DNA of 60,886 nucleotides from a virus (taxonomy: Duplodnaviria; Caudoviricetes). The number at the start of each line of letters is the position of its first letter. The first letter of the stretch is position 1. This document shows, one piece after another, positions 4,524-56,258 of the stretch. A program made the position numbers and the translations under genes. The notes beneath the pieces are model-generated. The model was not told the origin of the DNA. It did no database searches and worked only from the letters and a program-made list of their open reading frames with translations. Where the stretch lies: IMG/VR virus record IMGVR_UViG_3300006046_000006, positions 1 to 60,886 of that record, one strand, 5' to 3'.

Positions 4524-6224
4524 CTAGCTTGTGAACCCCGAAGGCGGGCTGTTTGTCGGCGAGTTGTAGAAGTTCGCTGGCGTACCCTTGTTACCGGTAC
4601 CCTTCACACCAGAGCCGTCACCACCGTCGAAGGACTCGAATTGGTAAGCCGGCTTGCCGGCACCTTGGGAGGTGTTTACCTCGTTGTCCTTGACCGTGAC
4701 TGAGGAACACTGGCCTCCGCCGTAGCCTGCAATAGCCGACTTCGGATTGCCCTCGTTGGGGTCGTTGCCCAGGCCGTAGGCATAGCGCCCAGATACCCGG
4801 TTCTTCTGCACAAGAACCGGACTGTCAGGCTGCCCAGCTCTCAGGATTTGGATTCCACGGCCGGCAACATCGTTGATGAGGTTGTCCTCGATGAGGATTG
4901 GACCCTGCACACGATCCCCGTAGATACCGCCGCCATCAGCATGGAAGAGATCCAGAATGATGCCATTGCGGTCAGCGGAGTCGCCATCAGCGGTGATCTC
5001 AGCGTGGTGAAGCAAGTTGCCTCGCAGCAAGCAAGCGTATTGCCCTTGCACTCTGGTGTTTCGTCGAGCATGCCCGATAGAGATCAGAGAACCAGCAGAG
5101 CCGTAGCCGAATGCCGCATTGCCAGCAGCGTGGTGAACTTCCACACCAATGACAGTCACTTTGTCCATGCCCCAGATACCGATGCCATTGCGCTGAATGT
5201 TCCCGGTACCGGGTCGAGGCTGCACCACCACATTCTCGATGGTGATAGCCCCACCTGATGGGTCACCACGGGTCCCCGTCTTGTCATTGCGGGTCGAGTC
5301 GAAGAAGATGCCCTCTCCAACTACCTTATTACCCACTGGCTCGACGAAAGCCCTGCGTGGATTGCAGGACAACCTGAAGTTCTCTATTGAGCCGTAGCCC
5401 TCGATGCCAGAGTCGCCGGTGAGACGAGCCCCATCTTCGAGGAAGATATACAGCCCCTTGAAGAGCTTATTCAGCATGTACAGCCCCTGCCATGCACCTG
5501 AGGGTACCCCGATTTTCCAGGCGTGCTGCAGAGCCTCTGGCCGATCGACCAGTTGTTGCAGCGTGCCATCGCGTCCGACGACTACGTCATAGTCGCCCTG
5601 CACCGGTGGGGGTATTGGCCCAGGGTCTGGGATGGGTATGGGGGATGGCCCAGGGTCGACGTTTATGCCGACAACTGAAAAGGTGCCATCCGAAGATGTG
5701 AGCCCCACGGCGAAGAGATCCGCCCAGTTGCTCCATGCCGCGGTGGTGTCGTTGATGATGGAGACGACTGACTCGCCCTTGGGAACACTGAATGTGACTC
5801 TGGATGTCCACTCACGATTGCGCTCAGTCCAGAGATCCTGGGTGATCGCCAGGGTGAGCTGCTTGTTCTGAGTACCCACCCTCACGTTTCGTGTGGACCC
5901 CGTTGCCTGCGACTCCGCAGCCAGAGTGTAGTCCAGAGCTACCTGGAGTGTCAGCGCCCGATCAGCGACGATCTTGAGCGAGACAGTCTCATTGGGATGT
6001 CCCCAGGATGCGATGTGATCGCCCTCGAGAACCATGCTGACCCCATTCGACAAGGTCAACTTGTCAGCAGTGGCAACCATGGAGAATTCCCCACCCACTG
6101 GCGGTGGTATTGGGTCAGGTCCTGGCCCGGGCCCTGGGTCTGGCGGAGTCACCGCTATGGCCCTCCCGATTTCGACTATGCGGTTGCCCATCAAGATGAG
6201 CTCCGCAGAGTAATTGTCTGTCAT
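4524..6224 (-). CDS. multidomain glycan-active protein: shared leader, Pro linker, CBM6/35-like module, right-handed beta-helix (pectin-lyase fold)
   Basis: PbH1-like repeats (RNGIGIW, ILIEDNLIND, GRGIQI, VTVKDNEV); PGPGP linkers; C-terminal domain clearly paralogous to that of 51599..54253. Confidence 0.75.
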   Translation of the reverse strand: MTDNYSAELILMGNRIVEIGRAIAVTPPDPGPGPGPDPIPPPVGGEFSMVATADKLTLSNGVSMVLEGDHIASWGHPNETVSLKIVADRALTLQVALDYTLAAESQATGSTRNVRVGTQNKQLTLAITQDLWTERNREWTSRVTFSVPKGESVVSIINDTTAAWSNWADLFAVGLTSSDGTFSVVGINVDPGPSPIPIPDPGPIPPPVQGDYDVVVGRDGTLQQLVDRPEALQHAWKIGVPSGAWQGLYMLNKLFKGLYIFLEDGARLTGDSGIEGYGSIENFRLSCNPRRAFVEPVGNKVVGEGIFFDSTRNDKTGTRGDPSGGAITIENVVVQPRPGTGNIQRNGIGIWGMDKVTVIGVEVHHAAGNAAFGYGSAGSLISIGHARRNTRVQGQYACLLRGNLLHHAEITADGDSADRNGIILDLFHADGGGIYGDRVQGPILIEDNLINDVAGRGIQILRAGQPDSPVLVQKNRVSGRYAYGLGNDPNEGNPKSAIAGYGGGQCSSVTVKDNEVNTSQGAGKPAYQFESFDGGDGSGVKGTGNKGTPANFYNSPTNSPPSGFTS

Positions 6225-6235
6225 TGTTAGCCTTT

Positions 6236-7309
6236 CTATCTAGTTGCGAGGTTGTTGAGTGTGGCGATATCCGGCATGTCACGCTGGGCACCCCAGGCAT
6301 ACCATGTCGAGTCACCGCCGATTTTATCCGCTTCGTCGAGGAGGTAGGGCCATGCCCGGGCATGTTCCTTGACGACTGTCGTACCGACGAGCCCTGACAT
6401 ATAGGTCTCCACCCACACGAAGGGCTTGTCAGTCTTTGCTCGAACCCAGCGGTATACATCGAGCATCTTCTCGACATGTTGCTCTGGGGTCCCACCGGGC
6501 AGATTGTAACCAGGTCGCAGATCAATGCCTCCATCGACTGCTATGAAGTCATACTTGCACTGATCCATGAAGCCTGAGATCATTGCGAGGTCGCGATTGT
6601 CGAGCGTGCCCTTCGTGCCATTGGCGGTCACGCCCCAGCTGCTCATACCGACGTAGGGACCGCCCAGCAGTACTCCTGGTGATGCCGCCCGCAGTTTGGC
6701 TTCGCCTGTGTTCCAGAAGTTGCAGTAGTGATCGACAGCCCATCGGTTGCCTCCCTCTGTCTGAGGTCGGTTGTCCCAGAACCCCCAGGGTGCAGAGCCC
6801 CGGCACTCTGACCAGGGGATAACTCGCTTGGGCTTGAACTCCTTGACGTAGGTGGCCCAGAGGTCATAGAGCTGAGGCCATGCCGAAGGTGAGGGACCCC
6901 ACTCGTCGTATGGGTCCCCCTTAGACGGGTTGCCGTCGGGTATCTTGGCGAACTGAGGAGCTTTGGCGAGGAGCATGAGGTCAGGTTTGCGCCAGTCCCA
7001 GTAAGACCGTAGCGAAGCAAGCGACTCATCCGGTCCCCACCCGAGGACATGGCTAGCGTACGACCGAGCAGCGCCCTGCACCGCAGTAGCCTCGGCTGCT
7101 GTGAGTGGGTTACCCCAGCTCGTAGCCGTTCGGGGTGTGGCCCATGTCCACCCGAACTTCGCCCTACCCTTGGCGGGAGGGACGGGTATCGGGTCAGGAG
7201 GTACTGGTATGGGCTCAGGCGGAGGTCCTACCGCAATGCCATGGCCTATTTCCGTTATTCGGTTGCCATAGACGATGAGTTCTTTGGAGTATTGGGAAAT
7301 GTCGGTCAT
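6236..7309 (-). CDS. putative clan GH-A glycoside hydrolase (GH39/GH5-like) with shared N-terminal leader
   Basis: Motif order PWSE (cf. WNE), LLGGP, DFIAVD, KPFVWVE matches GH-A TIM barrels; Pro-rich linker. Confidence 0.6.
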   Translation of the reverse strand: MTDISQYSKELIVYGNRITEIGHGIAVGPPPEPIPVPPDPIPVPPAKGRAKFGWTWATPRTATSWGNPLTAAEATAVQGAARSYASHVLGWGPDESLASLRSYWDWRKPDLMLLAKAPQFAKIPDGNPSKGDPYDEWGPSPSAWPQLYDLWATYVKEFKPKRVIPWSECRGSAPWGFWDNRPQTEGGNRWAVDHYCNFWNTGEAKLRAASPGVLLGGPYVGMSSWGVTANGTKGTLDNRDLAMISGFMDQCKYDFIAVDGGIDLRPGYNLPGGTPEQHVEKMLDVYRWVRAKTDKPFVWVETYMSGLVGTTVVKEHARAWPYLLDEADKIGGDSTWYAWGAQRDMPDIATLNNLATR

Positions 7310-7318
7310 TTATCCTCC

Positions 7319-7843
7319 TCAGTTGAGTAAGTAGCGTCCGCAGACCGGCCAAGGGGATGCACCACGGGCTGCGTAAAGTAGCTGAGCACGGTAATCTTGC
7401 TCTTCTCTTGAAGCGTCGATAGGATCTCCTGAGCCTCCAACGCCTTCCCAGGTTCGTATGTCAAACTGATAGAGCCCTCGATACCATCCTTGTGGTGAAA
7501 CCGCGCGTAAGTTGTCAGTGGATTCGCAGATCCTAAGGCGATACCACTGAGATTCAGATGGATATCCATATACCTTCCTTGGTGGGACGTAGGGGGTGGG
7601 TTCCTCCTTTTCCGGAACCTCGACCAATTTCGCAGGTTCTGGCGATGGAGGTGGTATATATTGCGGTATCTCAGGTAATAGGTCAATCAACGCAAGGTCG
7701 ACGTATGTCCCCGAGACTCTATAGGCTGGCGAAAAAATTGCGTCGCCTATGGATGGTAAAGGTGTAGGATTTGCCTGAGTCTCAGGAAGTCCTGCCCCCA
7801 CTAGAATCGTTACGAAAGTTGTCGTGAGCACCAATTTTGCCAT
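7319..7843 (-). CDS. rpf: resuscitation-promoting factor (Rpf) transglycosylase, secreted
   Basis: W..L..CES, GLYQFD..TW, ASREEQ...A..LY..RG..PWP.CG; hydrophobic signal peptide from the ATG at 7843 with AGGAGG RBS. Confidence 0.92.
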   Translation of the reverse strand: MAKLVLTTTFVTILVGAGLPETQANPTPLPSIGDAIFSPAYRVSGTYVDLALIDLLPEIPQYIPPPSPEPAKLVEVPEKEEPTPYVPPRKVYGYPSESQWYRLRICESTDNLRAVSPQGWYRGLYQFDIRTWEGVGGSGDPIDASREEQDYRAQLLYAARGASPWPVCGRYLLN

Positions 7844-8111
7844 CGTAATTGCCCTCCTTGAGCGCCTTGCAGATCTCACACTCAGGATCTTCCCAAGTGA
7901 TCGGTTTGCCATGCAGAATGCATGTTGGTGTGGGGTGAGGTGGATATTCGAATGTCGGTTCTACAGATTCCCTTTCATACTTTACTAGAGATTCATTGAC
8001 GGCGTCGAGGGCCCTGAGAATCAGATTCCTGGACATTAAGGGTTCAAGTTGTTGTACGATTCCTTTCAGTTCGATCACGCGGTCTCGGATTTGTTGTACT
8101 TCAGCTGCCAT
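7782..8111 (-). CDS. hypothetical protein
   Basis: 109-aa ORF filling the gap between primase-helicase and rpf; overlaps both. Confidence 0.45.
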   Translation of the reverse strand: MAAEVQQIRDRVIELKGIVQQLEPLMSRNLILRALDAVNESLVKYERESVEPTFEYPPHPTPTCILHGKPITWEDPECEICKALKEGNYDGKIGAHDNFRNDSSGGRTS

Positions 8112-27341: not shown

Positions 27342-27725
27342 TCATTCAATTCGAGTCGTATCGGGTGCGGAGGGGCCGATGCCGACATCTTTTGTAGCCA
27401 GGTTGACCTTCGTCGATATCTGTGTGGGTACCAGGAAGCCGAAGTAAGCCGCCACACCGGTGATCCAAGTCATGAAGGCGAGAACCAAAGACTCTCGACT
27501 GAAGACTGCAACACCATCTAGCGCAGTAGCCGTGATGATCAACCCTGCAACCGCAGACAAGAAGGCATGGAGAATCGCCTTCAGCGCCGACGACGCATGT
27601 AACTTTGTTACTAGCCCCACCAAGATGGGGATGATCACACCACTGATGAACATGGCTACCGTGGCATCCAGTTCAAAGAATGGTTCTTGCATCTGACCCT
27701 CTTGAGCCAGCAGTTGTGATAGCAT
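27342..27725 (-). CDS. holin-like membrane protein
   Basis: Three hydrophobic segments, directly downstream of the endolysin. Confidence 0.75.
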   Translation of the reverse strand: MLSQLLAQEGQMQEPFFELDATVAMFISGVIIPILVGLVTKLHASSALKAILHAFLSAVAGLIITATALDGVAVFSRESLVLAFMTWITGVAAYFGFLVPTQISTKVNLATKDVGIGPSAPDTTRIE

Positions 27726-27734
27726 TATTCTCCT

Positions 27735-28550
27735 TTACTTAGTCGGTCGCCAGGTCGTGCCAGACTCGACGACGAGTCGTTTGTATTCCTCCCGGTTGTC
27801 CTCGATATAGGTCGGGAGAGCTGAGTATGTTGGTGAGGCATTTTCGATGGGGCTCAAGTGGCTAAGCTTGCCATTGTCCCAGCGAACGAGCCAGGCCTCG
27901 TATGGATCATCTGACCTTATTTTGTAGAGCGGTGCGCCCATGTCTTCATCCTCTTCTGGTGGTGTGGGTGTGGGTACTTGCGGTGAAGGTGTGGACCCAG
28001 ACAGATCCCACCATCGTTGTTTTGCTGCGTAGGCATTATCACCGGGGCAGTTTGTGTTGTTCACATCGCGGTCGCCTTTGATGACCAAGTCGTTCCCAAA
28101 GTACCTCCTGATCTCCTTCAGAGCAAAGACCGCAGTCTCCTCCAAGTCCGGAGTGATCTGCTCGATCGTCGTGTTGCCCAGGACGCATATGGAGATTGAC
28201 CATTGATCCCATGGCCATCCGGTTCCTCCGCCTTGCGGACCGAGACCGCGTCCATCCATAACGCAGCGGTAGCCGAGCCCGATGTTGTAAGCGATATCTG
28301 CCCATTTTCTCACAGTCCCATCTGCCCAGTATGTGGGCTTGCCATCCTTGTCAAGGATCAATCGACTTAAGTGGTCGCGTTGGATACTGCGCCACTGTTG
28401 CTTCGAAGCCTCCACACTCTTGGGCATGCTCGGGTCAGCGGTACCTGAGTGGTGGAAGTATATCTCAGTCGTTGATGGGCGGATGTTTGACCACCGGTTC
28501 GGTAGGATCAATCCCACATCTTCTCGAGTTAACCATTGAATATCGCTCAT
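27735..28550 (-). CDS. endolysin, N-acetylmuramoyl-L-alanine amidase (Amidase_2/PGRP-like)
   Basis: YFHHSG, WADIAYN, ICVLGN, GDRDV...CPG; Pro/Thr linker and C-terminal domain. Confidence 0.82.
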   Translation of the reverse strand: MSDIQWLTREDVGLILPNRWSNIRPSTTEIYFHHSGTADPSMPKSVEASKQQWRSIQRDHLSRLILDKDGKPTYWADGTVRKWADIAYNIGLGYRCVMDGRGLGPQGGGTGWPWDQWSISICVLGNTTIEQITPDLEETAVFALKEIRRYFGNDLVIKGDRDVNNTNCPGDNAYAAKQRWWDLSGSTPSPQVPTPTPPEEDEDMGAPLYKIRSDDPYEAWLVRWDNGKLSHLSPIENASPTYSALPTYIEDNREEYKRLVVESGTTWRPTK

Positions 28551-29804: not shown

Positions 29805-30668
29805 CTAAATATAGAGAGGATAGAAAGTGAAGGCAGTTTGAAGGTTATTAAAGCTTCCCTGCCCGAAACGGCTGTCTACCGTGATCAGGTTATCACCCTT
29901 CTTAAACTCGAACCAGAATGCTGAGGGTCCAGCCCTAGAGATACTGTTCTGCCAGTTCGTAGTCAAATCGCCAGCACGACTGAGAAAGAAATTCTCAACA
30001 TCAATAGTCCAGGGAGCACCCACTGCCGGTGTGGTAACATTTAATGCGAGCGGTGGATTAAAAGACATATTCTTTATGGTAGTAGTTCCGCCTCCACCGC
30101 TAATGAGGGTCATCTGGATAGTCATACGGTGTGTGGAATCATCTCCAGGGTTATTTATCGTAACACCAGTTAGAGTAGGCAGCATCGAAGTAGTTATAGA
30201 TCCAGTGGTCCAGTAAGGATCAACCATCTTCAGGTCGACAACCATCTTACCAAAGTTGGGGCCAGTCATCTGAGGCTCTAGCGTCGATATGCACTCGGCC
30301 TGTGTGGTAAATGCCTGGACGCCATTGAAGAATCGTACGTTCTTCGTAACTGTTAGCAGTCGGTCACGGTTGTAGAAGATGTTCTTCAGGAAACGAAAGT
30401 TCTCATTGAACTGAGCGCGTCGTCCAGTAGCAGTCTTCGAAGTCAAACCGTTGACATCAGTGGATCGTATCCACATGCCCAGGCTCAGGGTTCGAGCGGC
30501 CGGCATCTTAGATCGCCACACCTCACCTGCTCGGTAGGGGACTTGGTAATTATCACCGGCCATTTCTGGGATTCCCTGACGGCCCCCGATGGACTCTACA
30601 CTATACGCCCAGGTTGAAAGAGGTGCCCCATCAACGAACCACATCTCCTCATTGACTAAGAGGGCCAT
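29805..30668 (-). CDS. distal tail protein (Dit-like)
   Basis: Immediately after the tape measure; DPYW, NPGD, GDNLI motifs. Confidence 0.78.
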   Translation of the reverse strand: MALLVNEEMWFVDGAPLSTWAYSVESIGGRQGIPEMAGDNYQVPYRAGEVWRSKMPAARTLSLGMWIRSTDVNGLTSKTATGRRAQFNENFRFLKNIFYNRDRLLTVTKNVRFFNGVQAFTTQAECISTLEPQMTGPNFGKMVVDLKMVDPYWTTGSITTSMLPTLTGVTINNPGDDSTHRMTIQMTLISGGGGTTTIKNMSFNPPLALNVTTPAVGAPWTIDVENFFLSRAGDLTTNWQNSISRAGPSAFWFEFKKGDNLITVDSRFGQGSFNNLQTAFTFYPLYI

Positions 30669-34358: not shown

Positions 34359-35195
34359 CTACGACCCGCCCTGGTGATTGGTGCGGATCGTCAAGCTGCC
34401 ACCTGTGAGCGAACCCACACCGGCAGTCATCTGGGCCACGTTCACACCGGCATAGACACCCTTGAATTCGACGATCCAGTCACCGGGACCACCGGTAACG
34501 AGGACATCGCCTGGGGCGATATTCGACAAACCCTCGAGCGCTGTCGTGAGTGCTGCCGTGCTGATGTTGTAAGCCAGTGCGCCGGTCGTTTGAGCGGCAA
34601 ACGTGAGCGTGAATGTACCGCCAGTGGCGTCCGAGATGATCTCTTGGATTTCATTGGAGGTAAGGGCAATCGCAGTCTGCGTCTCATTCCAAGTGATGCG
34701 ATAGAGGTTATCATTCACATCGCCCAGTCCTCGACCAGAACAGTGCGTCACGAAGAATACACCGTCACCGAACTCGCCCTCGAGAGTGTCATCACACTTG
34801 CACTTGTAGATGATGACGTGGACGTCACCACCATCGTCGGCAATGGATTGACCCTCGATGCGGAAGTATCGCCGTGTGTCGGTGATCTTCTTCAGGAAGT
34901 CCTTGACTTCCGTGGTGCCTGTACCCGAGGTCGTAATAGTACCACCGCTGAAGACATTCCAGGCTTCAATGGAGATACCACCTGCCTCAAGTTCCCACTC
35001 AACTGTCGGACCTTTACCGTGGACAGCCACGAGTCGATCATCACCACGCAACTCTTCATAGTCCTCAGCTTCGCTGAATGACAATGTCTGAGACACTGGG
35101 AGATCAACCGTGGTAGCCAAGGTACCGTCCGTGTTGATAGGCGTTATTTTCACATCCCTCAAGCCAAACGGCAATACGGGATCAGTTAGAGCCAT
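34359..35195 (-). CDS. major tail (tube) protein with C-terminal accessory domain
   Basis: LPFGLRDVKITP...ELRGDD...VEWELEAGGIS...YFRIEGQ; C-terminal ATGGTFTLTF...LEGLSNI domain; synteny. Confidence 0.88.
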   Translation of the reverse strand: MALTDPVLPFGLRDVKITPINTDGTLATTVDLPVSQTLSFSEAEDYEELRGDDRLVAVHGKGPTVEWELEAGGISIEAWNVFSGGTITTSGTGTTEVKDFLKKITDTRRYFRIEGQSIADDGGDVHVIIYKCKCDDTLEGEFGDGVFFVTHCSGRGLGDVNDNLYRITWNETQTAIALTSNEIQEIISDATGGTFTLTFAAQTTGALAYNISTAALTTALEGLSNIAPGDVLVTGGPGDWIVEFKGVYAGVNVAQMTAGVGSLTGGSLTIRTNHQGGS

Positions 35196-43178: not shown

Positions 43179-43452
43179 GTGCCTCCCTTACGTCGAACCA
43201 GAACTCCTCTTGACCTTGCTGAGTTCCCGTGGCGATGAAGCGGTAGAAATGACGGCCACTCATGTAGGGAACGTAGAGACCTTCGTATACTCCCTGAGGA
43301 GTTTCTACCGCTGCCACATCGTCGAGGGAGTCACTCCCAGGACGCTTGACTTTGAACTCCGCAGTAACACTGACTGGAGCGTCGTCGATCAGGGTCTCAG
43401 CATGGAGAATTACCTGATCTCCAATGTCGTATTTGTTTGGGATCGCCATCAT
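43171..43452 (-). CDS. small Ig-like virion accessory protein (putative)
   Basis: YDIGD...VKRPG...GVY...GRH.YRF beta-sandwich pattern. Confidence 0.6.
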   Translation of the reverse strand: MMAIPNKYDIGDQVILHAETLIDDAPVSVTAEFKVKRPGSDSLDDVAAVETPQGVYEGLYVPYMSGRHFYRFIATGTQQGQEEFWFDVREAHA

Positions 43453-46400
43453 CGAGTCCTTGATAGGATATCCAAATCACCCAAATGGTGATCCAACAAA
43501 ATCCGTAGTGCGCTGCGATCATTGACTGTGATGATCAGATCACTCGAATCATCCGGTTCGATAGAGAAGTCCTCAAAGTCCGTGAGGCGAATCAGCAACA
43601 GGCCATGATCTGAGAGACGTATCTCAAGCGCATGAACCTCTTGTCCAAAGAGCTTCCACTTGAGACTTAGGTCATCGAAGAGGTGTGCATGGAGATTCCA
43701 TTGGATGTTCGCAGCATCGCCTGCCCTCGAGCGTAGTGCCCAAAGGTAATTAGTGCTATCTCCAACGAAGGTCCGTGTACCCCACTGCAGATCCCTCGCA
43801 CGACCAATGGCTGCCCTTGTATCCCACAAAGGCCATACCTGATCGCCCACCATCTTCCTGACAACCCACTGCAGATCACGTTGTTTGATAACGAGACCAG
43901 CAGTACGCCACCTCAGATCGTAGCTAGGACCAACTGCCTTTCGGACATTCCACACCAAACTGCTGTTGATTCCGAAGGGACCACCAATACCCCACAGAGT
44001 GATGAGCTGGTCGTTGACCCTAGCCCTGGTGTTCCACCTGATCGAGGAATCGTCAGCCAGTAGAGCACGGACTGCCCACCTGGTATCGAGGTTCTTGTTA
44101 GCATAACCCCATACCTTCCAGCGGAAGTCTGCATAATTGCCCTGCGTGGTACGAGTACCCCACTTGAGATTCAGATCATCAGCAATGGCGGCAATGCTAA
44201 CTACCTGCCAACGCAGATCAATCCGATCCTCCAGAAGAGCTCGTGTGGTCCACACCAGACTGTTGGAGTCGCCAGCGAGGGATCGTATGAACCACCGAAG
44301 ATCCTCTTGGTCATTGACGGTTGTTCGAACGCCCCACCTAAGGTCAACCGAATCCTGAACAACTGCGATAGAAAGAACCTGCCACTGCAAGTCACTGCTG
44401 TCGTTGACGACGGCTTTAACCTGCCATCTCAGTTCAGCAGAGTCACTGACTGTAGCAGCGACCCTCCATCGTAGGTCACAAGTATCGGATGCCTTAGTTC
44501 TAACACCCCATTGTGTGTTATTGGAATCTCCAATGGAAATGCGGGTTGCCCACCGAAGATCATTATTATCACCAAGAGCGGACTTAACTGCCCACCTGAG
44601 GTCGTTATTATCTCCAAGGCGACTCCTAACCGACCACCGGAAATCTTCTTGATCTCCTACGAAGGTTCGGATAGCCCAGCGTAGATCTTCCTGATCTCCG
44701 ACGAATGTTCGAACAGCCCACCTTTGATCACTAGAATCGTTGACCCTAACCCTGACAGACCAACGGATATCGTTGAAGTCAGGCATGATTGCCCTGACAT
44801 TCCAACGGATATCGTTGGTATCACCGACTGGCGCTTTGACCTGCCAACGAAAATCTTCCTGATCTCCCAGCTTAGTGCGAACCGACCAACGGTAATCTTC
44901 TTGATCGCCTAGAGTTGTACGAATGCCCCATCGGACATCCATACTATCGTTGAACGCGGTGCGAACACCCCAGCGGATCTCGTTGAGGTCGAAGGTGATC
45001 TGCTTCGTCTGCCAGCGCAGGTCTTCCTGGTCACCCAGGATTGCCCTGATCGACCAACGATAGTCAACCTGCTTACCGATAACAGTAGTACCGACGAAGT
45101 ACGAGGGCAACTGCATGGTCTCCCACATACGATCGCCCTTGGAATTGATGGGCAGATTCGGTGCTATGGGTAGAGAATGTGTTTGCCAGGTCACCAACGA
45201 CCAGCGACGTACTGCAGAAGTATCGAGCCAAGCCGACCAACGTAGATCGGTCTGGTCACCGAGAATTGATCTAACAGACCATCGGAAGTCTTCCTGGTCA
45301 CCAACCTTAGTTCTTGTGGCCCAACGGAAGTCTTCCTGATCTCCCAGTGTGGTACGTACGGCCCAGCGGTAATCCTCCTGATCACCAATGGTTGTACGAA
45401 TACCCCATCGAACATCGAGATCTTTTGCTACGGGCCCAACGACTGACCAGCGTGTGTCTAGCTGATCGCCTTGAGCCTTCTTGACCTGCCAGCGGAAGTC
45501 TTCTTGGTCACCAACGAATATGCGTGTGGACCAACGATAGTCTTCCTGATCACCGAGGACAGTTCTAACCGACCAACGGAAATCATCCTGATCACCAGCA
45601 AGTGCCCGTACTGACCACCGGTAGTCGAGTTGTTTGCCAACCGCAGTGAGAATGGTTATGGGTGGGGCAGGCAGCATGCCTGTTTCCCACATCCGCTCAG
45701 CCTGAGTATCGAACCCAGTACCTGGCGATATGGGCAGGTTTTGTGTCTGCCAAGTAACTAAACTCCATCGCCTCAGGGCTGCTGTCGGGTCAGCAATATC
45801 AGTAGAACCTAAGGTTGCCGCACCCATGTGCGACAGAGGCGATCCCATGACAAAGCCAAACTCAGGCGGGTTCGCCCAGCTTTGTCCACCCATATAGCTG
45901 CTGCCGATGTGGGTGTTATAATCCCCCATCACGAAACCCTGCTCGGGTGTGGCTGCAGGGATTACATCATCTGAGGCACCTATCGGTGCGGCACCGATGT
46001 GAGATCTTGGCGACCCCATCATGAGGCCGAGTTCTCGCTCAGGGTTCGCTGGCGGAGGTGCTCCACTTGCTGGCTTGAACGAGGCAATCGTAGATTCAGT
46101 GAGAACTGTATTGGTGGTTGACCAGTTTGCCGAGATTGCCGCAGCAGTGGTCTGAGAAACTAGGTGACCATAAGAACCATTGTCAGAGCCGAAGGTCGTG
46201 CTGGTCTCATCGAGGACCATCGTGCAGCCACCCGTGAGGGTGCGTGTGTTGACGCCATCGGCGTGATGGAAGCCGGTGGCAATCAAGCAACCATCGACGG
46301 TCGGCGTGATCGGCCCCGCAGTAACTGATGGTGCGACTTGCCCATTGCGAGCCTGTTGATCCAAAGGATCGGAGGCTGATTGTACCCCAGAGTACCACGT

Positions 46401-46694
46401 GATGGCCAGCGAGGGGTACGTGGCGGTGCCGGTAATGGTGAAGGTGTGACCGGTGCCGACTGTGGCATTGAAGGCGTAATAGAAGCGATGCTGCCGACCA
46501 GATGCGGTAGAGGCCGTCATCGCTGTCCAAGTGTTGCCCTTGGAATCTGTCAGTGTCTCCAAACTTGTGGCGCCCGATGAGTACGACACGAGAATGAAGT
46601 TGGCGCCAGTCGTGTCGAACGCCGACGAGGTAAATCCGTTGGAGTCGCCCCCACCATTGCGAGCTAGGGTACCTCCGACATAGGCAATGGTCAT
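43449..46694 (-). CDS. large virion fibre-like protein with 14-aa tandem repeats
   Basis: 1081 aa; dozens of RWx(V/T)Rxx(V/L)GDxxD(L/F/Y) repeats; Thr/Ser-rich N-terminal domain. Confidence 0.8.
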   Translation of the reverse strand: MTIAYVGGTLARNGGGDSNGFTSSAFDTTGANFILVSYSSGATSLETLTDSKGNTWTAMTASTASGRQHRFYYAFNATVGTGHTFTITGTATYPSLAITWYSGVQSASDPLDQQARNGQVAPSVTAGPITPTVDGCLIATGFHHADGVNTRTLTGGCTMVLDETSTTFGSDNGSYGHLVSQTTAAAISANWSTTNTVLTESTIASFKPASGAPPPANPERELGLMMGSPRSHIGAAPIGASDDVIPAATPEQGFVMGDYNTHIGSSYMGGQSWANPPEFGFVMGSPLSHMGAATLGSTDIADPTAALRRWSLVTWQTQNLPISPGTGFDTQAERMWETGMLPAPPITILTAVGKQLDYRWSVRALAGDQDDFRWSVRTVLGDQEDYRWSTRIFVGDQEDFRWQVKKAQGDQLDTRWSVVGPVAKDLDVRWGIRTTIGDQEDYRWAVRTTLGDQEDFRWATRTKVGDQEDFRWSVRSILGDQTDLRWSAWLDTSAVRRWSLVTWQTHSLPIAPNLPINSKGDRMWETMQLPSYFVGTTVIGKQVDYRWSIRAILGDQEDLRWQTKQITFDLNEIRWGVRTAFNDSMDVRWGIRTTLGDQEDYRWSVRTKLGDQEDFRWQVKAPVGDTNDIRWNVRAIMPDFNDIRWSVRVRVNDSSDQRWAVRTFVGDQEDLRWAIRTFVGDQEDFRWSVRSRLGDNNDLRWAVKSALGDNNDLRWATRISIGDSNNTQWGVRTKASDTCDLRWRVAATVSDSAELRWQVKAVVNDSSDLQWQVLSIAVVQDSVDLRWGVRTTVNDQEDLRWFIRSLAGDSNSLVWTTRALLEDRIDLRWQVVSIAAIADDLNLKWGTRTTQGNYADFRWKVWGYANKNLDTRWAVRALLADDSSIRWNTRARVNDQLITLWGIGGPFGINSSLVWNVRKAVGPSYDLRWRTAGLVIKQRDLQWVVRKMVGDQVWPLWDTRAAIGRARDLQWGTRTFVGDSTNYLWALRSRAGDAANIQWNLHAHLFDDLSLKWKLFGQEVHALEIRLSDHGLLLIRLTDFEDFSIEPDDSSDLIITVNDRSALRILLDHHLGDLDILSRTR
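43640..45640 (-). repeat. coding tandem repeat, about 42-bp period
   Basis: Recurring tcttcctgatc/tcttcctggtc units encoding GDQED; boundaries approximate. Confidence 0.8.
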
Positions 46695-46706: not shown

Positions 46707-47693
46707 CTAGAGCAATTCTGCGATGCCGAAGTCCATTGTCATTTCTGAGTTGGCGTTAGCTACGCTCATGGTCCATTGCACAGTCAGGGTACGGTCAGCA
46801 GCATCACTATCCACAGCAGCCGATCCACGGAAAGCGGTAACCACTGGAGCATTGGCTACAGCAGCAGCAGGAATCGCTTCCAACATACCAGCGGTGCCCG
46901 TCGTAGGAGCCACACGACCCGCAGTGACAGCAGCTTGTGTGGTGAAAATCCCCGCAGTCTGCTGAGCAGTATTGCTCTGTGCATTCAAGATGAAATCCAA
47001 GTACCAACCACCACGAACCGCAGAAGCAGTTGGTGTTGTTGTGGCATCAGCGAACAGTGTAGTACCACCATAGGCAATCGTCAGAGTGAGAACCGAAAGA
47101 CCAGAAGTATTCGTCAACCAGGACCCACCACAAGTACACCGCAATTGCTGACCCGCTAAGAATAATCCGCTAGGCAAAGTAACTGTGAAGTATGTCTGAA
47201 TGGTGGAGTTATTATTGAAGGTAACCGGCGTAGTAGTTGCCTTCAGCGTCACCCGACCACGCATGATGCGTAGGTCAGTACTATGAGTAGTAAGAATCGT
47301 GGTAGCATTGGCAGGCACATAGATGGCCGCAATGACCACATCATCAGTAGTGCGAGCAGGAGGCTTCGGATTTGCTGCTGCGGTACCAGCACGTACTGCC
47401 TTAGCACCCGCAGAGGTAATCACAATGAGATCTATGCGTGGATATGTAGCATCTGCGGTAGCGATGGTGACTGTAGCACTGGCGATAGCAAACAAGACAC
47501 CAGCAGACAGCACGGCGCCTTTAGCAACCGTGGGCGTCATGCCAGCGCCACCCGTAACTGTGCACCCACTGAGTACGCAGTTGCGACCACTCATGCCCTC
47601 GATGAGTACATCCATGTACTCCTGAAAGACGACGCTCTGTGCATCATTGACACCCTCGCCCTTGTCAGGTATTGACCATCCCATTATGCCCAT
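46707..47693 (-). CDS. minor tail/fibre protein
   Basis: ADATYPRIDLIV...GTAAANP.PP anchor motif typical of actinophage minor tail proteins; Thr/Ala-rich C-terminus. Confidence 0.7.
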   Translation of the reverse strand: MGIMGWSIPDKGEGVNDAQSVVFQEYMDVLIEGMSGRNCVLSGCTVTGGAGMTPTVAKGAVLSAGVLFAIASATVTIATADATYPRIDLIVITSAGAKAVRAGTAAANPKPPARTTDDVVIAAIYVPANATTILTTHSTDLRIMRGRVTLKATTTPVTFNNNSTIQTYFTVTLPSGLFLAGQQLRCTCGGSWLTNTSGLSVLTLTIAYGGTTLFADATTTPTASAVRGGWYLDFILNAQSNTAQQTAGIFTTQAAVTAGRVAPTTGTAGMLEAIPAAAVANAPVVTAFRGSAAVDSDAADRTLTVQWTMSVANANSEMTMDFGIAELL

Positions 47694-50292: not shown

Positions 50293-50640
50293 TTAGAATA
50301 CTACGGCTTCCCCAGAGGGAATGGTTACTACGAGGTAGTTCAATCCTTCTATCTTGGTATTAAAATCTTCCCTACTGGGTCCGATCAACCCCGACGGATG
50401 TGTATGCCACACCCCCACTTTACTTCCGATGTCCTCAATCTGCAGGTCAGGTCGTGTCTCAAATAGATCAACCACCTGCTCCTTGTCGAGCACGTAGCTA
50501 TCGTGAGGACTTTCGCTCACGTTACGAACCTGAATGACCTCGCCAGCGTCAGTGTAGAGACCACAATGTTCGACATCAGCATCAGATGTCAACTCGAGTA
50601 TCTTCTCGACTACTTCTGGCAACGGGACCAACACCGGCAA
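50293..50640 (-). CDS. JAB/MPN-domain metalloprotease
   Basis: EHCG...VRNVS...WHTHPSG..GPSRED (JAMM motif). Confidence 0.85.
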   Translation of the reverse strand: MPVLVPLPEVVEKILELTSDADVEHCGLYTDAGEVIQVRNVSESPHDSYVLDKEQVVDLFETRPDLQIEDIGSKVGVWHTHPSGLIGPSREDFNTKIEGLNYLVVTIPSGEAVVF

Positions 50641-50878: not shown

Positions 50879-51602
50879 TGTTGTGTCTCCCCATGGTGTC
50901 ATCCACCACGTCGGCGTCAATGTACCCCTGCGTGAGTGCGTACTCGTCGAAGTTCGTCTGGCTGGGGTTCACCATGGCGTGAGCCAGGATGCCCTGCAGC
51001 GTTACTGAGACCTCGGACTCAATGTGCTTGACCGGCTTGCCTATGACATGCTCGATCAGGAACTTAGCAGCATCCAGCTTCACCGCGGCAGGCACCATAG
51101 GCTTGCCCTTCTTATCGACCTTGTCATTCTTGAGGATGTTTGACATCACCCCGAGAGCCTCGATGGTGTGGACATTCATCTCAGTCTTGACTAGCTTCTC
51201 ATACCGTCGGATTATCTCCTCGTGGTACGCCTTGCTGATCCAGGTCGGTTGTTTGCCCCGGAAGCCTCCGCCGGCATCGCGTGGGCGCCCTCGAGCCAGC
51301 TCCTCGTCGTCCCACTCCTCGACGGGCTTGTACAGCATCCTCAGGTCAGCCTCAAGCAACTCCCCTCGACGACGAGCCCTTTTGCGGATCTGCTTGTCGT
51401 TCGTAGCTCGCCTAGGGTCGAGCGGGGCAACCGTATAGCCGTCTGGATCATCTTCCGCCTTCAGCTGGTAAGGTCTGCCCTTACGACCGACCATCGGCTT
51501 CCCTCGAGCGTTTAGGAATGAGTACCTCATATCCAGTTCGCATGGAGTAGCACCAGGGCCATTTTTATAGGCAAATCGAGCCCGTCGTTCTGCGTTTCTC
51601 AT
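50868..51602 (-). CDS. probable terminase small subunit
   Basis: WDDEELARGRPRD..G.FRG, VKLDAAKFLIEHVIGKP helical pattern; upstream of TerL. Confidence 0.6.
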   Translation of the reverse strand: MRNAERRARFAYKNGPGATPCELDMRYSFLNARGKPMVGRKGRPYQLKAEDDPDGYTVAPLDPRRATNDKQIRKRARRRGELLEADLRMLYKPVEEWDDEELARGRPRDAGGGFRGKQPTWISKAYHEEIIRRYEKLVKTEMNVHTIEALGVMSNILKNDKVDKKGKPMVPAAVKLDAAKFLIEHVIGKPVKHIESEVSVTLQGILAHAMVNPSQTNFDEYALTQGYIDADVVDDTMGRHNNGT

Positions 51603-54253
51603 GTGATGAACCCCGCTGGAGGAGAAGTTCCTGGCGAATTGTGCCAATCGACGAATCCACCACCGACTAGATGGTTATTCGACCCAGTAACCCCTGGGCT
51701 AGTGTTGAAGTCGAAGAAGAAGAAGCTAGGATGAACCTGAGCAGGATCATCGACGACTGTGTTGTTCGTAACAACCACATTCGAGTGGACACCGCGACCA
51801 TTGCCCCCGATGCCCGTCTGCGGGTCTGAGAAGTTGCCTGACCCAGGCTCTGGACCCAGATAACGAGCCCATTGTCCAGAGATCGTGTTGTTGTCAACGT
51901 AGATCGGGGAGTCAGGTAGCCCAGCGAACAATATCTGAATGCCTCGACCAGAGACATCGTGAATATTATTGTTGCGGATCATCACCGAACCAATGATGTG
52001 GTTCCCATAAATAGTGCTGAAGTCACCGAAGTTACCCACACTGTGGTACAGGTCCAGAATAATCCCATTGCGGTCAGCCGAGGGGTTACCATCACTAGCC
52101 AGCTGGTTGTAGACGTGGTTATTCTCGATGAGAACTCTCTCACCACCATTACTATCCCACCGCCACCCCTGACCAATGGAGATCCCTGATCCAGCACCAC
52201 CAAAGCCATAAGCAGCGTTGCCCGAGGCATCATGGATCGTGCAGTTGCGGATGATGATCTTGTCACAGGACCAGAAGGCGACCCCGTTGCGACCAATAAC
52301 ACCGCTGCCAGGAATCGGCTCTACTGTGAGCCCATCAACCGTGATATTACCGCCAGGCAGTCCATTTGTGGGGGAGCCATTATTGGTACGGCTGGCATCC
52401 TGGTAGATGCCCTCTGCGTTCGTCGAGTTACCCAAGGCTTGTATCTTGCCTGGACCAACGAGAGTGAGATTGCGGCACCCTCCATAAAACTCCACACCAG
52501 AGCCACCAGGACCCCGCAGGATGCCTCCACTCTGGAATTCCACGATGACATTGCCGAAATCCTTGTTGTAGAACAGAATACCAGCGCCGGTAGGCCCATT
52601 CCAAGTGCCAGACGGCACCAAGACTCGCTTACCAGCAATCGAGGAGTACGGAAGCTCCAATATCTGCTGGAGTGACCCGTTCACGCCTACGACATAATCC
52701 GGAGTCCCTCCGGTACCGCCTCCAGCACCAATGACAATGCTGTGAGTCTTAGCATTCGACCCCGTCGCATTCGTGGCAGTCAACTGCACGTTGTATGTGG
52801 AGGCACCGGCAAAGCTATGCGTCGGATTTTGCTGTGTGGAGGTAGCCCCATCGCCAAACAGCCACGCCCATGACGTCGGAAAGTTTGTGCTAGAGTCGTT
52901 AAACTGTATCGTCTGTCCCACGACTCCGCTCGAGGGGTTCATCGTGAACTCAGCTACCGGAGCAACACCCCCTGTACCACCACCGCCAGCGCCGGTGAAC
53001 GTGTAGCTGTCGAGGTCTGAGTATGTGTACTCCAACCCCGAGTGCTCTATGCGGATGACGTTGTTGCCAAGCGTCAGCGGAATCGTGATGGCACTAGACT
53101 GCGCAAATCTAGCAGGGCTCGTCCAGTCGCTCGAGGTGTTGGGCAATGATACTGTACCAGCAATAGCCCCATTCACTCGGATATTGACCGTGACAGTACC
53201 CTCTGCTGGGTTGCCCTGAGCATACCTTATCGAGAATGTGTAACTACCACCGACCGCAGCCGAGAAGTTAATCTGGTTGACGTCTCCCGTCAGACCAAAT
53301 GTGCCGATGTAGCCCGTGCCTGTGTAGCCCGCATACTGCGTGGATATAACCGCCCCACCCTCGACCGTGCCGGACTCAGCCTCCACGATCGTGGATGTCG
53401 AGCCCACCAGCAACGGCCTAGCCGTCATAGCAGCCGTGGCAGGCGCCAAGTTTATGCCTCGTGAGGGCAGCAAGGGCACCGCGGTCATGGCAAAGCTCTT
53501 CGGCGCCAGCGTCAGCGCTCCCACACCACCAGTAATGGTGAGGGGCTGAGCCCTCATATTCACAACCTTCGGCTGCAGAGCAATAACCTGCTCAACCCCC
53601 ACACTCACCAGGAGTTTGTTCGCCACTAGCTGAGTAAGAGCTGGTGTCAGGGAAGCACCCACCACGTTGCCCACCGAAATCGTGAGCGGCCGTGCCTGGA
53701 ACTGAATAGTGTTGGGCAAAGCACGAATGCCTCCGAAAACATCCGTCGTGTTGGTGTTCCACCGCATCCGCCAGAGTTCGCCCGTCGAATCTCCGATGCC
53801 CAGCCCCTCACACTTCGTGAGAAGGAATGTGCCCTCCGAGAATGAGCCCTCGATCGACCCATTGACCTTACACCGTCGTATGACGATGTGTAGATCCGAG
53901 CCATCGTCGTTTATACTCTGTCCCTCAATCACAAAGTACGGTCTAACGTCGGTATCGAGCTTAATTAGCTCACGGAAGCCGGCCCCAGACACCAGGGAAG
54001 CTCCGGTGAGGACCTGCCAAGCCTCGAATGAGATGCCACCGGCCTCAATCTCCCACTCGACCATCGCCCCGGTGCCCTCCATGGCAACGTTGCGATCATC
54101 GCTCTTCAGAAGCTCGATACTTTCCGTCTCACGGAACGTCACGACTCGCCCTACTGGCAGATCTACTGGTGTCCCTACCCCGAGTTCCCCGATAAACGGC
54201 GTGATCTTCACGTCGCGTATCCCGAACGGGAGATATGTCTCAACCAGCGTCAT
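51599..54253 (-). CDS. tail-tube paralog fused to repeat stalk, CBM6/35-like, PKD and beta-helix domains
   Basis: N-terminal ~170 aa aligns with 34359..35195; EAESG...YTGTGY...IRYA (CBM35); PVAEF...WLFGDG...QNPTH (PKD); beta-helix paralogous to 4524..6224. Confidence 0.85.
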   Translation of the reverse strand: MTLVETYLPFGIRDVKITPFIGELGVGTPVDLPVGRVVTFRETESIELLKSDDRNVAMEGTGAMVEWEIEAGGISFEAWQVLTGASLVSGAGFRELIKLDTDVRPYFVIEGQSINDDGSDLHIVIRRCKVNGSIEGSFSEGTFLLTKCEGLGIGDSTGELWRMRWNTNTTDVFGGIRALPNTIQFQARPLTISVGNVVGASLTPALTQLVANKLLVSVGVEQVIALQPKVVNMRAQPLTITGGVGALTLAPKSFAMTAVPLLPSRGINLAPATAAMTARPLLVGSTSTIVEAESGTVEGGAVISTQYAGYTGTGYIGTFGLTGDVNQINFSAAVGGSYTFSIRYAQGNPAEGTVTVNIRVNGAIAGTVSLPNTSSDWTSPARFAQSSAITIPLTLGNNVIRIEHSGLEYTYSDLDSYTFTGAGGGGTGGVAPVAEFTMNPSSGVVGQTIQFNDSSTNFPTSWAWLFGDGATSTQQNPTHSFAGASTYNVQLTATNATGSNAKTHSIVIGAGGGTGGTPDYVVGVNGSLQQILELPYSSIAGKRVLVPSGTWNGPTGAGILFYNKDFGNVIVEFQSGGILRGPGGSGVEFYGGCRNLTLVGPGKIQALGNSTNAEGIYQDASRTNNGSPTNGLPGGNITVDGLTVEPIPGSGVIGRNGVAFWSCDKIIIRNCTIHDASGNAAYGFGGAGSGISIGQGWRWDSNGGERVLIENNHVYNQLASDGNPSADRNGIILDLYHSVGNFGDFSTIYGNHIIGSVMIRNNNIHDVSGRGIQILFAGLPDSPIYVDNNTISGQWARYLGPEPGSGNFSDPQTGIGGNGRGVHSNVVVTNNTVVDDPAQVHPSFFFFDFNTSPGVTGSNNHLVGGGFVDWHNSPGTSPPAGFIT

Positions 54254-55710: not shown

Positions 55711-55739
55711 AGTCTATCAAAGCCTAAAGCTCGTGTCAA
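55711..55739 (-). promoter_or_regulatory. SigA-like promoter for the structured RNA and late operon
   Basis: TTGACA cgagctttaggctttga TAGACT (17-bp spacer). Confidence 0.8.
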
Positions 55740-56229: not shown

Positions 56230-56258
56230 ATTATAATTTACCCCGTTGCCGTTGTCAA
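56230..56258 (-). promoter_or_regulatory. consensus sigma70/SigA promoter
   Basis: TTGACA acggcaacggggtaaat TATAAT. Confidence 0.8.

Follow-up and report, generated by a model that had tools for sequence, protein, structure and literature searches.

A second tail-tube gene with a carbohydrate-binding and beta-helix arm in an uncultivated phage

Background

Why would a tailed phage keep a second gene for a tail-tube protein, far from its tail genes and with some 700 residues of other domains attached? The question is raised by virus record IMGVR_UViG_3300006046_000006 (Duplodnaviria; Caudoviricetes). The whole record of 60,886 bp was analysed and is called the window here; it is complete by CheckV estimate (100%). 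The gene in question lies on the minus strand and encodes a protein of 884 amino acids (aa), called the fusion below.

The answer that we consider probable is that the fusion is a virion protein. It would be built into the tail tube through its N-terminal tube domain, with the rest of the chain forming an outward arm that binds, and probably cleaves, host surface polysaccharide.

Small adhesion domains are a known feature of tail tubes, and it is also known that receptor-binding enzymes are exchanged between N-terminal anchors. The fusion would unite both ideas: the anchor is itself a tube subunit, and it comes from gene duplication rather than from frameshifting.

The fusion gene and its parts

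From the N-terminus onward, the protein consists of a tube domain, a stalk of five repeats, a carbohydrate-binding module (CBM) of the CBM35/6 type, a PKD domain and a right-handed beta-helix. The gene, its parts and its downstream border are located as follows.

51599..54253, minus strand: whole fusion gene, 884 aa, ATG start, from the list of open reading frames (ORFs); orthologs of 877, 903 and 1333 aa, and one more in metagenome locus L008
53729..54253, minus strand: tail-tube (major tail protein) domain, residues 1-175, from similarity to the major tail protein, phrog_4971, invariant columns and fold
53390..53728, minus strand: stalk, residues 176-288, five repeats of ~20-24 aa (L-x-P-x4-5-hydrophobic-x-A-x-P-L), from self-comparison
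52994..53389, minus strand: CBM35/CBM6-type carbohydrate-binding module, residues 289-420, from Pfam and model
52733..52966, minus strand: PKD domain with Gly-rich linkers on either side, residues 430-507, from Pfam and model
51602..52699, minus strand: right-handed parallel beta-helix, residues 519-884, putative polysaccharide lyase/hydrolase or adhesin, from AlphaFold2 and VIA-align
51599..51602, minus strand: ATGA overlap of the fusion's TGA stop with an in-frame ATG (residue 16) of a downstream 259-aa ORF, from the translations

A preliminary description of this DNA had proposed a tube paralog with a stalk, a CBM, a PKD domain and a beta-helix. BLASTP, PHROG, Pfam and AlphaFold2 bear out this architecture in full.

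The fusion is encoded by an ORF of its own, which has an ATG and, upstream, an AGGTGG resembling a Shine-Dalgarno site. At its other end, the ATG at residue 16 is probably the real start of the downstream ORF, of which the ortholog in L008 is 247 aa long. A pseudogene or a chance ORF is ruled out by the orthologs (P0002, P0003, P0004 and L008), together with purifying selection on all four parts. Two more orthologs, L009 and L010, are truncated at contig ends.

The tube domain

The phage also has an ordinary major tail protein (MTP).

34359..35195, minus strand: major tail protein, 278 aa, a tube domain followed by a C-terminal decoration domain of ~100 aa (phrog_4971, E 4.3e-64)

This gene sits between the gene for the tail completion protein (PF11367) and the chaperone and tape-measure genes. 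The canonical place for an MTP gene is therefore occupied by 34359..35195 and not by the fusion gene, which lies 16.4 kb away (51599-35195). A distance of about 16 kb from the tail module had been noted before.

Residues 1-175 of the fusion are 39% identical to the MTP in BLASTP (E 1e-51), and the true similarity stops around residue 170. Over the comparisons made, the identity of the tube domain to MTP ranges from 39% to 48%. The paralogy had already been read from shared motifs, and all the pairs then quoted are present in the alignment: LPFGIRDVKITP/LPFGLRDVKITP, VDLPV, VEWEIEAGGIS/VEWELEAGGIS and YFVIEGQS/YFRIEGQS. The fusion also matches the PHROG family phrog_4971, 'major tail protein', over residues 3-209 (E 6.8e-42). 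Actinophage genes annotated as major tail protein are found by tblastn at 37-46% identity, among the 30 listed of 162 records.

In an alignment of 25 sequences, the tube domain of the fusion keeps all eight family-invariant columns and 12 of the 14 near-invariant ones. Among the residues retained is the pair D52-D53, at the tip of the long hairpin that joins model strands 38-49 and 57-69. According to a passage of PMC8718954, the growth of ring on ring in lambda requires two conserved aspartates of gpV, which lie in the corresponding long loop. The two aspartate pairs may be equivalent.

A model of residues 1-520 has a mean predicted local distance difference test (pLDDT) score of 60. Within it, the tube domain reaches 65-83 (residues 12-170), and the CBM and PKD domains are acceptable. 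This model was compared with 48,161 representative chains. Residues 4-168 resemble the JBD30 chain 8rk3_q (Z 13.1, root-mean-square deviation (rmsd) 4.2, 157 residues aligned), the YSD1 major tail protein 6xgr (Z 11.5, rmsd 4.5, 160 aligned) and the HFTV1 tail 9fkb (Z 11.0, rmsd 5.0, 145 aligned). A sequence profile of the tube family found no solved relative among chains of the Protein Data Bank (PDB), only two chance-level matches to Csm4 (E 0.22). In the predicted structure, the tube fold of beta-sandwich, long hairpin and flanking helix is intact.

Sequence, invariant residues and predicted fold all assign the fusion to the phrog_4971 tube family, though not as the major tube subunit.

Origin and selection

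Where does the second tube domain come from? In a maximum-likelihood tree of 33 tube domains, with one further row left out, the five rows of fusion type fall into one clade with the four MTPs from the same phage lineage (support 96/95). Its fusion group has a stem of 0.9 changes per site, against 0.18 for the MTPs, and branches within the fusion clade measure 0.01-0.07. A clade shared with the lineage's MTPs, a long stem and short inner branches point to a duplicate of the phage's own MTP, which changed fast and was then frozen. The sequences thus place the origin of the tube domain in an MTP duplication within this phage lineage. Acquisition from a distant phage is ruled out by the same tree, which joins the domain to the lineage's own MTPs.

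Selection was measured between the window and L008, as the ratio of nonsynonymous to synonymous substitution rates (dN/dS). The tube domain has a ratio of 0.056, the stalk 0.26, CBM plus PKD 0.15 and the beta-helix 0.10; these values are rough, with dS saturated at 1.6-3.6. A conserved N-terminal part with a faster distal part is the usual mark of a virion anchor with a host-recognition module, as in receptor-binding proteins.

Contact with the major tail protein

If the fusion does enter the tube, its tube domain should fit beside that of the MTP. Two MTP tube domains were folded together with one fusion tube domain, using a separate alignment for each chain. The resulting ipSAE is 0.64 (runs 0.69, 0.63 and 0.64), against 0.00 for the best of three controls. 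Contact agreement between runs is at least 92%, and the partner pLDDT at least 80. In calibration, 58 of 80 solved complexes reached this mark, as did 2 of 110 mismatched pairs.

In the predicted complex the fusion domain meets one MTP copy on each lateral face. It uses two different surfaces, as a neighbour in a ring would. The fold test thus supports the view that the fusion tube domain is compatible with lateral contact to the MTP.

The stalk, the CBM and the PKD domain

The repeats of the stalk begin at residues 179, 203, 226, 249 and 269. The best pairs of 13-residue windows score 39, 39 and 36, where 200 shuffles give a mean best score of 21.9 and a maximum of 35. The five repeats of about 20 aa that had been read from the sequence thus exceed every shuffle. 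The repeat pattern is retained in the fusion orthologs. Elsewhere in the six frames of the window it was found at a single chance-like site only.

The CBM is recognised twice by Pfam, as CBM_35 (residues 289-404, 37.5 bits, cut-off 28) and as CBM_6 (31.4 bits, cut-off 28.9). Its model is a beta-sandwich that resembles the CBM35 structure 2wz8 (Z 14.1, rmsd 2.5, 127 aligned). For the PKD domain, Pfam PKD_4 gives 58.5 bits over a cut-off of 27, and the model resembles 1l0q (Z 14.3, rmsd 2.1, 86 aligned).

The beta-helix and what it may do

The AlphaFold2 model of residues 510-884, built on 23 aligned sequences, is a right-handed parallel beta-helix with a pLDDT of 92.3 and a predicted template modelling score (pTM) of 0.93. 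This settles the fold, and the structural matches leave the chemistry unfixed. VIA-align returns a flat list, with Z from 27.4 to 22.9 in the best 50 rows. At the top are 5mqp (Z 27.4, rmsd 3.0, 292 aligned) and 8jaz (Z 27.4, rmsd 2.5, 275 aligned). The matches include the glycoside hydrolase BT_1002, an alginate epimerase/lyase, AlgE4/AlgE6, phi29 gp12 and the pectate lyase Pel9A, and also the tailspikes CBA120 TSP2 and Sf6.

Catalysis is suggested by the fold and by a conserved ladder of polar residues. R655, S689/S692, D727/N729/D734 and R770 are invariant or nearly so in the alignment of 23 sequences (in the numbering of the beta-helix model these are R146, S180/S183, D218/N220/D225 and R261, to which 509 is added for the full length). 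They immediately precede the first strand of four successive rungs (model strands 149-, 182-, 222- and 263-). The ladder may form a conserved groove like the active sites of beta-helix enzymes.

The alternative for this part of the protein holds wherever the protein is placed. The beta-helix could be a non-catalytic adhesin, and the arm could merely bind glycans, as the CBM and Ig extensions of siphophage tails do. Several findings favour this over cleavage. The top structural matches include PfbA, a non-enzymatic adhesin (Z 26.5, rmsd 3.2, 299 aligned), and no particular lyase or hydrolase family stands out. No curated family of either kind is matched: Pfam Beta_helix reaches 22 bits at residues 635-815, under its cut-off of 25.9. 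Foldseek finds generic matches with weak E-values, around 1e-4 against the PDB (GH28, AlgE4, the lyase RbmB, the HK620 tailspike). Against BFVD the matches are again generic, to phage 'pectate lyase superfamily' and tailspike models, and E-values overall run from 1e-4 to 1e-5. The polar ladder speaks for an enzyme, with R655, S689/S692, D727/N729, D734 and R770 at the same turn of four successive rungs, much as in an active-site groove. Enzymes also make up most of the top matches, and the relative P0016 carries Pectate_lyase_4. Taken together, we regard the adhesin as a real possibility that falls short of an even chance.

The domain itself is rare. An exhaustive HMMER search of 1.84 billion cluster representatives gives 23 proteins at E <= 1e-3, the query's own cluster included. 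They are 57-1522 aa long. The domain is mostly C-terminal, after PKD, other Beta_helix or pectate-lyase domains, the latter as in P0016. Read by eye, the N-termini of these relatives resemble phage fibre anchors, with collagen-like Gly-X-Y runs, or coiled coils with Pro-rich linkers.

The window itself encodes one of the 23.

4524..6224, minus strand: second protein of the same genome with the rare beta-helix, 566 aa, with another N-terminus (40% identity to the fusion)

Its residues 213-566 align with 519-884 of the fusion (E 4e-59), and Pfam Beta_helix gives 26.6 bits. The phage therefore bears two copies of this rare domain, one attached to a tube subunit and the other preceded by a short N-terminal peptide.

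The 566-aa protein shares that N-terminal peptide with its 357-aa neighbour (6236..7309, minus strand). It is ~25 aa long (MTD..ELI..GNRI.EIG..IAV), and is followed in both by a Pro-rich linker. It could serve both proteins, with their different enzyme cargos, for docking or targeting. Neither Pfam nor PHROG gives a match for the 357-aa protein. Next to it, 7319..7912 (minus strand) encodes 197 aa with an N-terminal hydrophobic segment, a Pro-rich linker and a transglycosylase-like domain of the Rpf type (PF06737, E 6.2e-17). The genes at 4524..6224, 6236..7309 and 7319..7912 make up a small envelope-active cluster, distant from the lysis cassette at 27342..28550.

Placement in the tail

How might the fusion work? 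Residues 1-175 would occupy a subunit position in the hexameric rings of the tube, together with the MTP or stacked on it. The remaining ~700 residues would project outward as repeat stalk, CBM35/6, PKD spacer and beta-helix tip. The tip would bind and probably cleave a host surface polysaccharide, possibly an acidic one, such as capsule, exopolysaccharide (EPS) or wall glycan. Before engagement of the tail tip, the arm would then keep the phage attached to the cell envelope or open a way through it.

Entry into a ring had been claimed before, as co-polymerisation into the tail. This part of the claim gains indirect support from the fold, the 8 of 8 invariant columns, the tube dN/dS of 0.056 and the fold test. 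Two other parts went beyond the evidence. Display 'along the shaft' is one, where the divergence of the domain fits a single defined ring at least as well. The term 'glycan-degrading' is the other, with a beta-helix that matches lyases, hydrolases, epimerases, tailspikes and an adhesin about equally.

This leads to two ways of being in the tube. The fusion may form a defined ring, or a few of them, perhaps adjacent to the distal tail protein (Dit) like a collar of side fibres, which is possible and no more than that. Sparse, random co-polymerisation along the shaft is a tentative second option. The divergence and subsequent freezing, and a gene that is away from the MTP and beside possible tail-accessory genes, make us lean slightly to a defined ring. 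The most specific version is a dedicated in-line ring of six copies, most likely on the Dit, with each ~700-aa arm ending in a polysaccharide-cleaving beta-helix. Such a 'tube-borne depolymerase collar' is a doubtful proposition in all its details at once.

The two modes differ in number. As a usual rule, there is about 1.5 Å of tail per tape-measure residue. With a tape measure of 937 aa, the tail would be ~140 nm long and have ~35 rings. This would mean ~6 copies per virion for a defined ring, and tens for random incorporation.

A number of findings count against tube incorporation as such. The phage is uncultivated, and the virion location of the fusion is something that we infer. The gene is not in the tail module; it is 16.4 kb away, ahead of the terminase gene, and is followed by a weakly TerS-like gene. 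Two of the near-invariant positions are altered in the tube domain (I12 and S51), and a loop is shorter by four residues than in the family. In the fold test, close relatives of a true partner also pass, and a 45%-identical paralog is expected to, which means that the result measures likeness and not co-assembly. Finally, the stalk (177-287) has a pLDDT of ~30 as a monomer and gets no shape from the model; arm geometry and oligomeric state are therefore not set by it.

Some of this would suit a protein whose tube domain only docks or oligomerises. It could form a ring of its own or sit on the tail exterior, at the Dit/baseplate periphery or the neck, and would not be in line in the DNA conduit. 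The strong divergence after duplication (stem 0.9 against 0.18) fits this, as do the loop deletion and the 2 of 14 altered positions. So do the neighbouring genes, which are possible tail accessories: a JAB/MPN protein of phrog_5556 and a 328-aa protein with a weak 'baseplate protein' match. Such a role would have no need for the eight invariant columns and the hairpin aspartates, however, all of which are kept. The fold test uses both lateral faces in a ring-like way. In addition, no tube fold attached to the exterior of a tube is known to us. We think external docking unlikely.

The position of the gene, which precedes the terminase gene and is not part of the tail module, would also suit a protein that is not in the virion at all. 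This would be a soluble enzyme, possibly hexamerised by its tube domain and freed at lysis, where it degrades host exopolysaccharide or biofilm for the benefit of the progeny. The second beta-helix protein of the genome, which has no recognisable virion anchor, agrees with this. The tube-domain dN/dS of 0.056 and the retention of all assembly-related invariants are then hard to explain, and the other carriers of the beta-helix have N-termini that look like phage fibres on a by-eye reading. Free tube domains would also risk poisoning tail assembly. A soluble enzyme is the most improbable of the explanations considered here.

Incorporation into the tube through the N-terminal domain thus stays the preferred reading.

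Distribution

How widespread is this arrangement? In a collection of 5.8 billion proteins, long proteins with this tube domain fall into four clusters only, the window's own and those of 877, 903 and 1333 aa. One of the two word-indexed searches gave 4 hits among 972 candidates of 486-1547 aa. The other used the family profile and gave 4 hits among 7,997 scored candidates of 332-2000 aa, where a blank is weak evidence. A scan of viral contigs with the whole fusion protein gave 8 pattern matches, of which 0 were confirmed.

The 1333-aa member (P0003) has an in-frame insert of ~450 aa between CBM and PKD, which has no Pfam match. The cargo therefore varies on a constant anchor. It had been suggested earlier to look for tube paralogs with swapped C-terminal cargos, and P0003 is one case.

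A metagenome scan produced 39 loci. Three are of the fusion type (L008 complete, L009 and L010 cut), 35 are ordinary MTP-like loci and one is PKD-only. The MTP-like loci show 27-51% identity, and the complete ones encode 170-283 aa. In L008, the fusion gene heads the same string of downstream genes as in the window. So far, the fusion is confined to a small clade of uncultivated soil phages.

In line with a second tube subunit, at least three other phages of the same MTP family have two tandem tube genes. In L039 the pair (5191-5712 and 5735-6250; 173 and 171 aa) is nearly identical. In L032 (1268-1831 and 1854-2372; 188 and 173 aa) it is clearly diverged. The third pair is in G002:C3 (9119-9604 and 9729-10217). 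It may be a recurrent trait of this MTP family to have two tube subunits per tail.

Genome context

Most ORFs of at least 100 aa are on the minus strand, as is every gene named here. The tail module continues past the tape measure with the Dit.

29805..30668, minus strand: distal tail protein (Dit), 287 aa, directly after the tape-measure gene (Atlas 0.97; template modelling (TM) score 0.69-0.82 to SPP1_Dit/Sipho_tail clusters)

That the fusion is itself the Dit is ruled out, since this separate protein already fills the role. Beyond it come a 416-aa minor tail protein with weak matches only, and directly thereafter the endolysin and holin genes.

The C-terminal domain of the MTP (residues 179-278; 34359..34661, minus strand) is of the decoration type, with matches to phrog_5042, phrog_2839 'tail sheath' and phrog_10909 (MTP). 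It is absent from most members of the family, which are 170-189 aa long.

Downstream of the fusion, the JAB/MPN-like protein is 115 aa long (50293..50640, minus strand) and matches the 'tail protein' family phrog_5556 with E 3.5e-14. The 328-aa protein (46707..47693, minus strand) has weak 'baseplate protein' and 'head protein' PHROG matches and a faint DUF4815. Directly upstream of the large terminase gene is a protein of 1081 aa (43449..46694, minus strand) with ~45 tandem repeats of 14 residues, xGDQEDxRWxVRTx. The spacing from Trp to Trp is exactly 14 in 38 of 47 cases, and the L008 ortholog is longer than 1403 aa. The protein has no Pfam family and a faint PHROG match, and Atlas gives unnamed viral clusters only. 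It may be a beta-solenoid-like fibre. The genes for the 115-aa and 328-aa proteins may form a second, tail-accessory module ahead of the packaging genes.

A perfect sigma-70 consensus, TTGACA, 17 nt and TATAAT (12/12), lies at 56230..56258 (minus strand), upstream of the small genes before the fusion. A second promoter-like site at 55711..55739 (minus strand) scores 10/12 and has a TG. The number of such sites in the region is not above that of shuffles (3 against a mean of 4.4).

The same genome also exists as a 60,900-nt contig in a metagenome-assembled genome (MAG) labelled Acidobacteria bacterium gp4 (G001:C196). There it is cut at window position 7694/7644, and the fusion tube domain is 100% identical. 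The ends of the window (1/60886) are contiguous in this contig, which implies a circular, or circularly permuted, genome in assembly. The place of the fusion gene relative to the ends of the record is therefore without meaning. The closest cultured relatives of the MTP are from actinophages (162 records, among them 72 of Mycobacterium, 46 of Gordonia and 38 of Microbacterium). These relatives and the Rpf-type transglycosylase point to one host group, and the Acidobacteria label points to another; as a sign of the host, binning is a weak hint.

Significance

Among the papers listed by full-text literature searches, no tube paralog fused to a depolymerase or beta-helix enzyme turned up by title or start of abstract, with subscription journals and supplements outside the scope of those searches. 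A tube-borne depolymerase collar was likewise not found described for any tail.

If our reading is true, the tube ring is added to the places where a depolymerase can be mounted. It would also provide a natural tube subunit that tolerates a cargo of 700 residues, which is of interest for engineered polytubes and display. In addition, the fusion would be an example of a neofunctionalised subunit of a helical polymer, one that diverged fast and then froze. The rare beta-helix, of which this genome has two copies, is a candidate for a new carbohydrate-active family, drawn from soil phages.

Comparison with known systems

Extended tube subunits are not new. SPP1 gp17.1* carries an FN3 domain, and the TpeX extensions of the 936 group carry CBMs, on MTPs of 470-530 aa. 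In both, as described in passages of PMC8718954 and PMC6669499, a minority of tube subunits bears an outward adhesion domain that is thought to contact host cell-wall sugars. The ratio of gp17.1 to gp17.1* is given as 3:1 (PMC8718954). The fusion resembles them in this. In SPP1 and TpeX, however, a programmed frameshift in the same gene yields the long form, which has an identical tube domain, whereas the fusion is a separate gene, 16.4 kb off and 39-48% identical. Its cargo of ~700 aa is also different, and ends in an enzyme-type beta-helix. The fusion works like the frameshift-extended MTPs, but lacks their defining feature in being a separate, diverged gene.

Lambda gpV and T5 pb6 similarly have a tube domain followed by an external decoration domain on one chain, according to a passage of PMC8718954. 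The MTP of this phage has its ~100-aa C-terminal domain in the same way. In gpV and pb6, a small Ig-like domain sits on every subunit, and there is no second paralog and no cargo the size of an enzyme.

The tube initiator gp43 of Mu combines a tube-like domain with an extra one, and six copies form a single ring, a 24-stranded barrel, at the junction of baseplate and tube (described in part of PMC11915804). This single ring is a model for the fusion as one defined ring. Tube initiators belong to contractile-tail phages, though, and their extra domain is small (helix-rich or LysM) and structural, not an arm for receptor binding or enzymatic work.

Evolved Dit proteins (evoDit) with inserted CBMs also display these modules near the tail tip on a tube-like core that forms rings (abstracts of PMC7533335 and PMC9128512). 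This phage has an ordinary, separate Dit, and the core of the fusion is instead a recent duplicate of the MTP.

At the far end of the arm, the likeness is to the right-handed beta-helices of HK620, Sf6, CBA120 TSP2 and phi29 gp12 (Z 24.5-25.6, rmsd 2.6-3.4, 267-291 aligned). In beta-helix tailspikes, too, the distal domain is exchanged modularly on conserved N-terminal anchors. Those proteins are trimers on dedicated head-binding or adaptor domains at the tail tip or neck, whereas the anchor of the fusion is a tube subunit.

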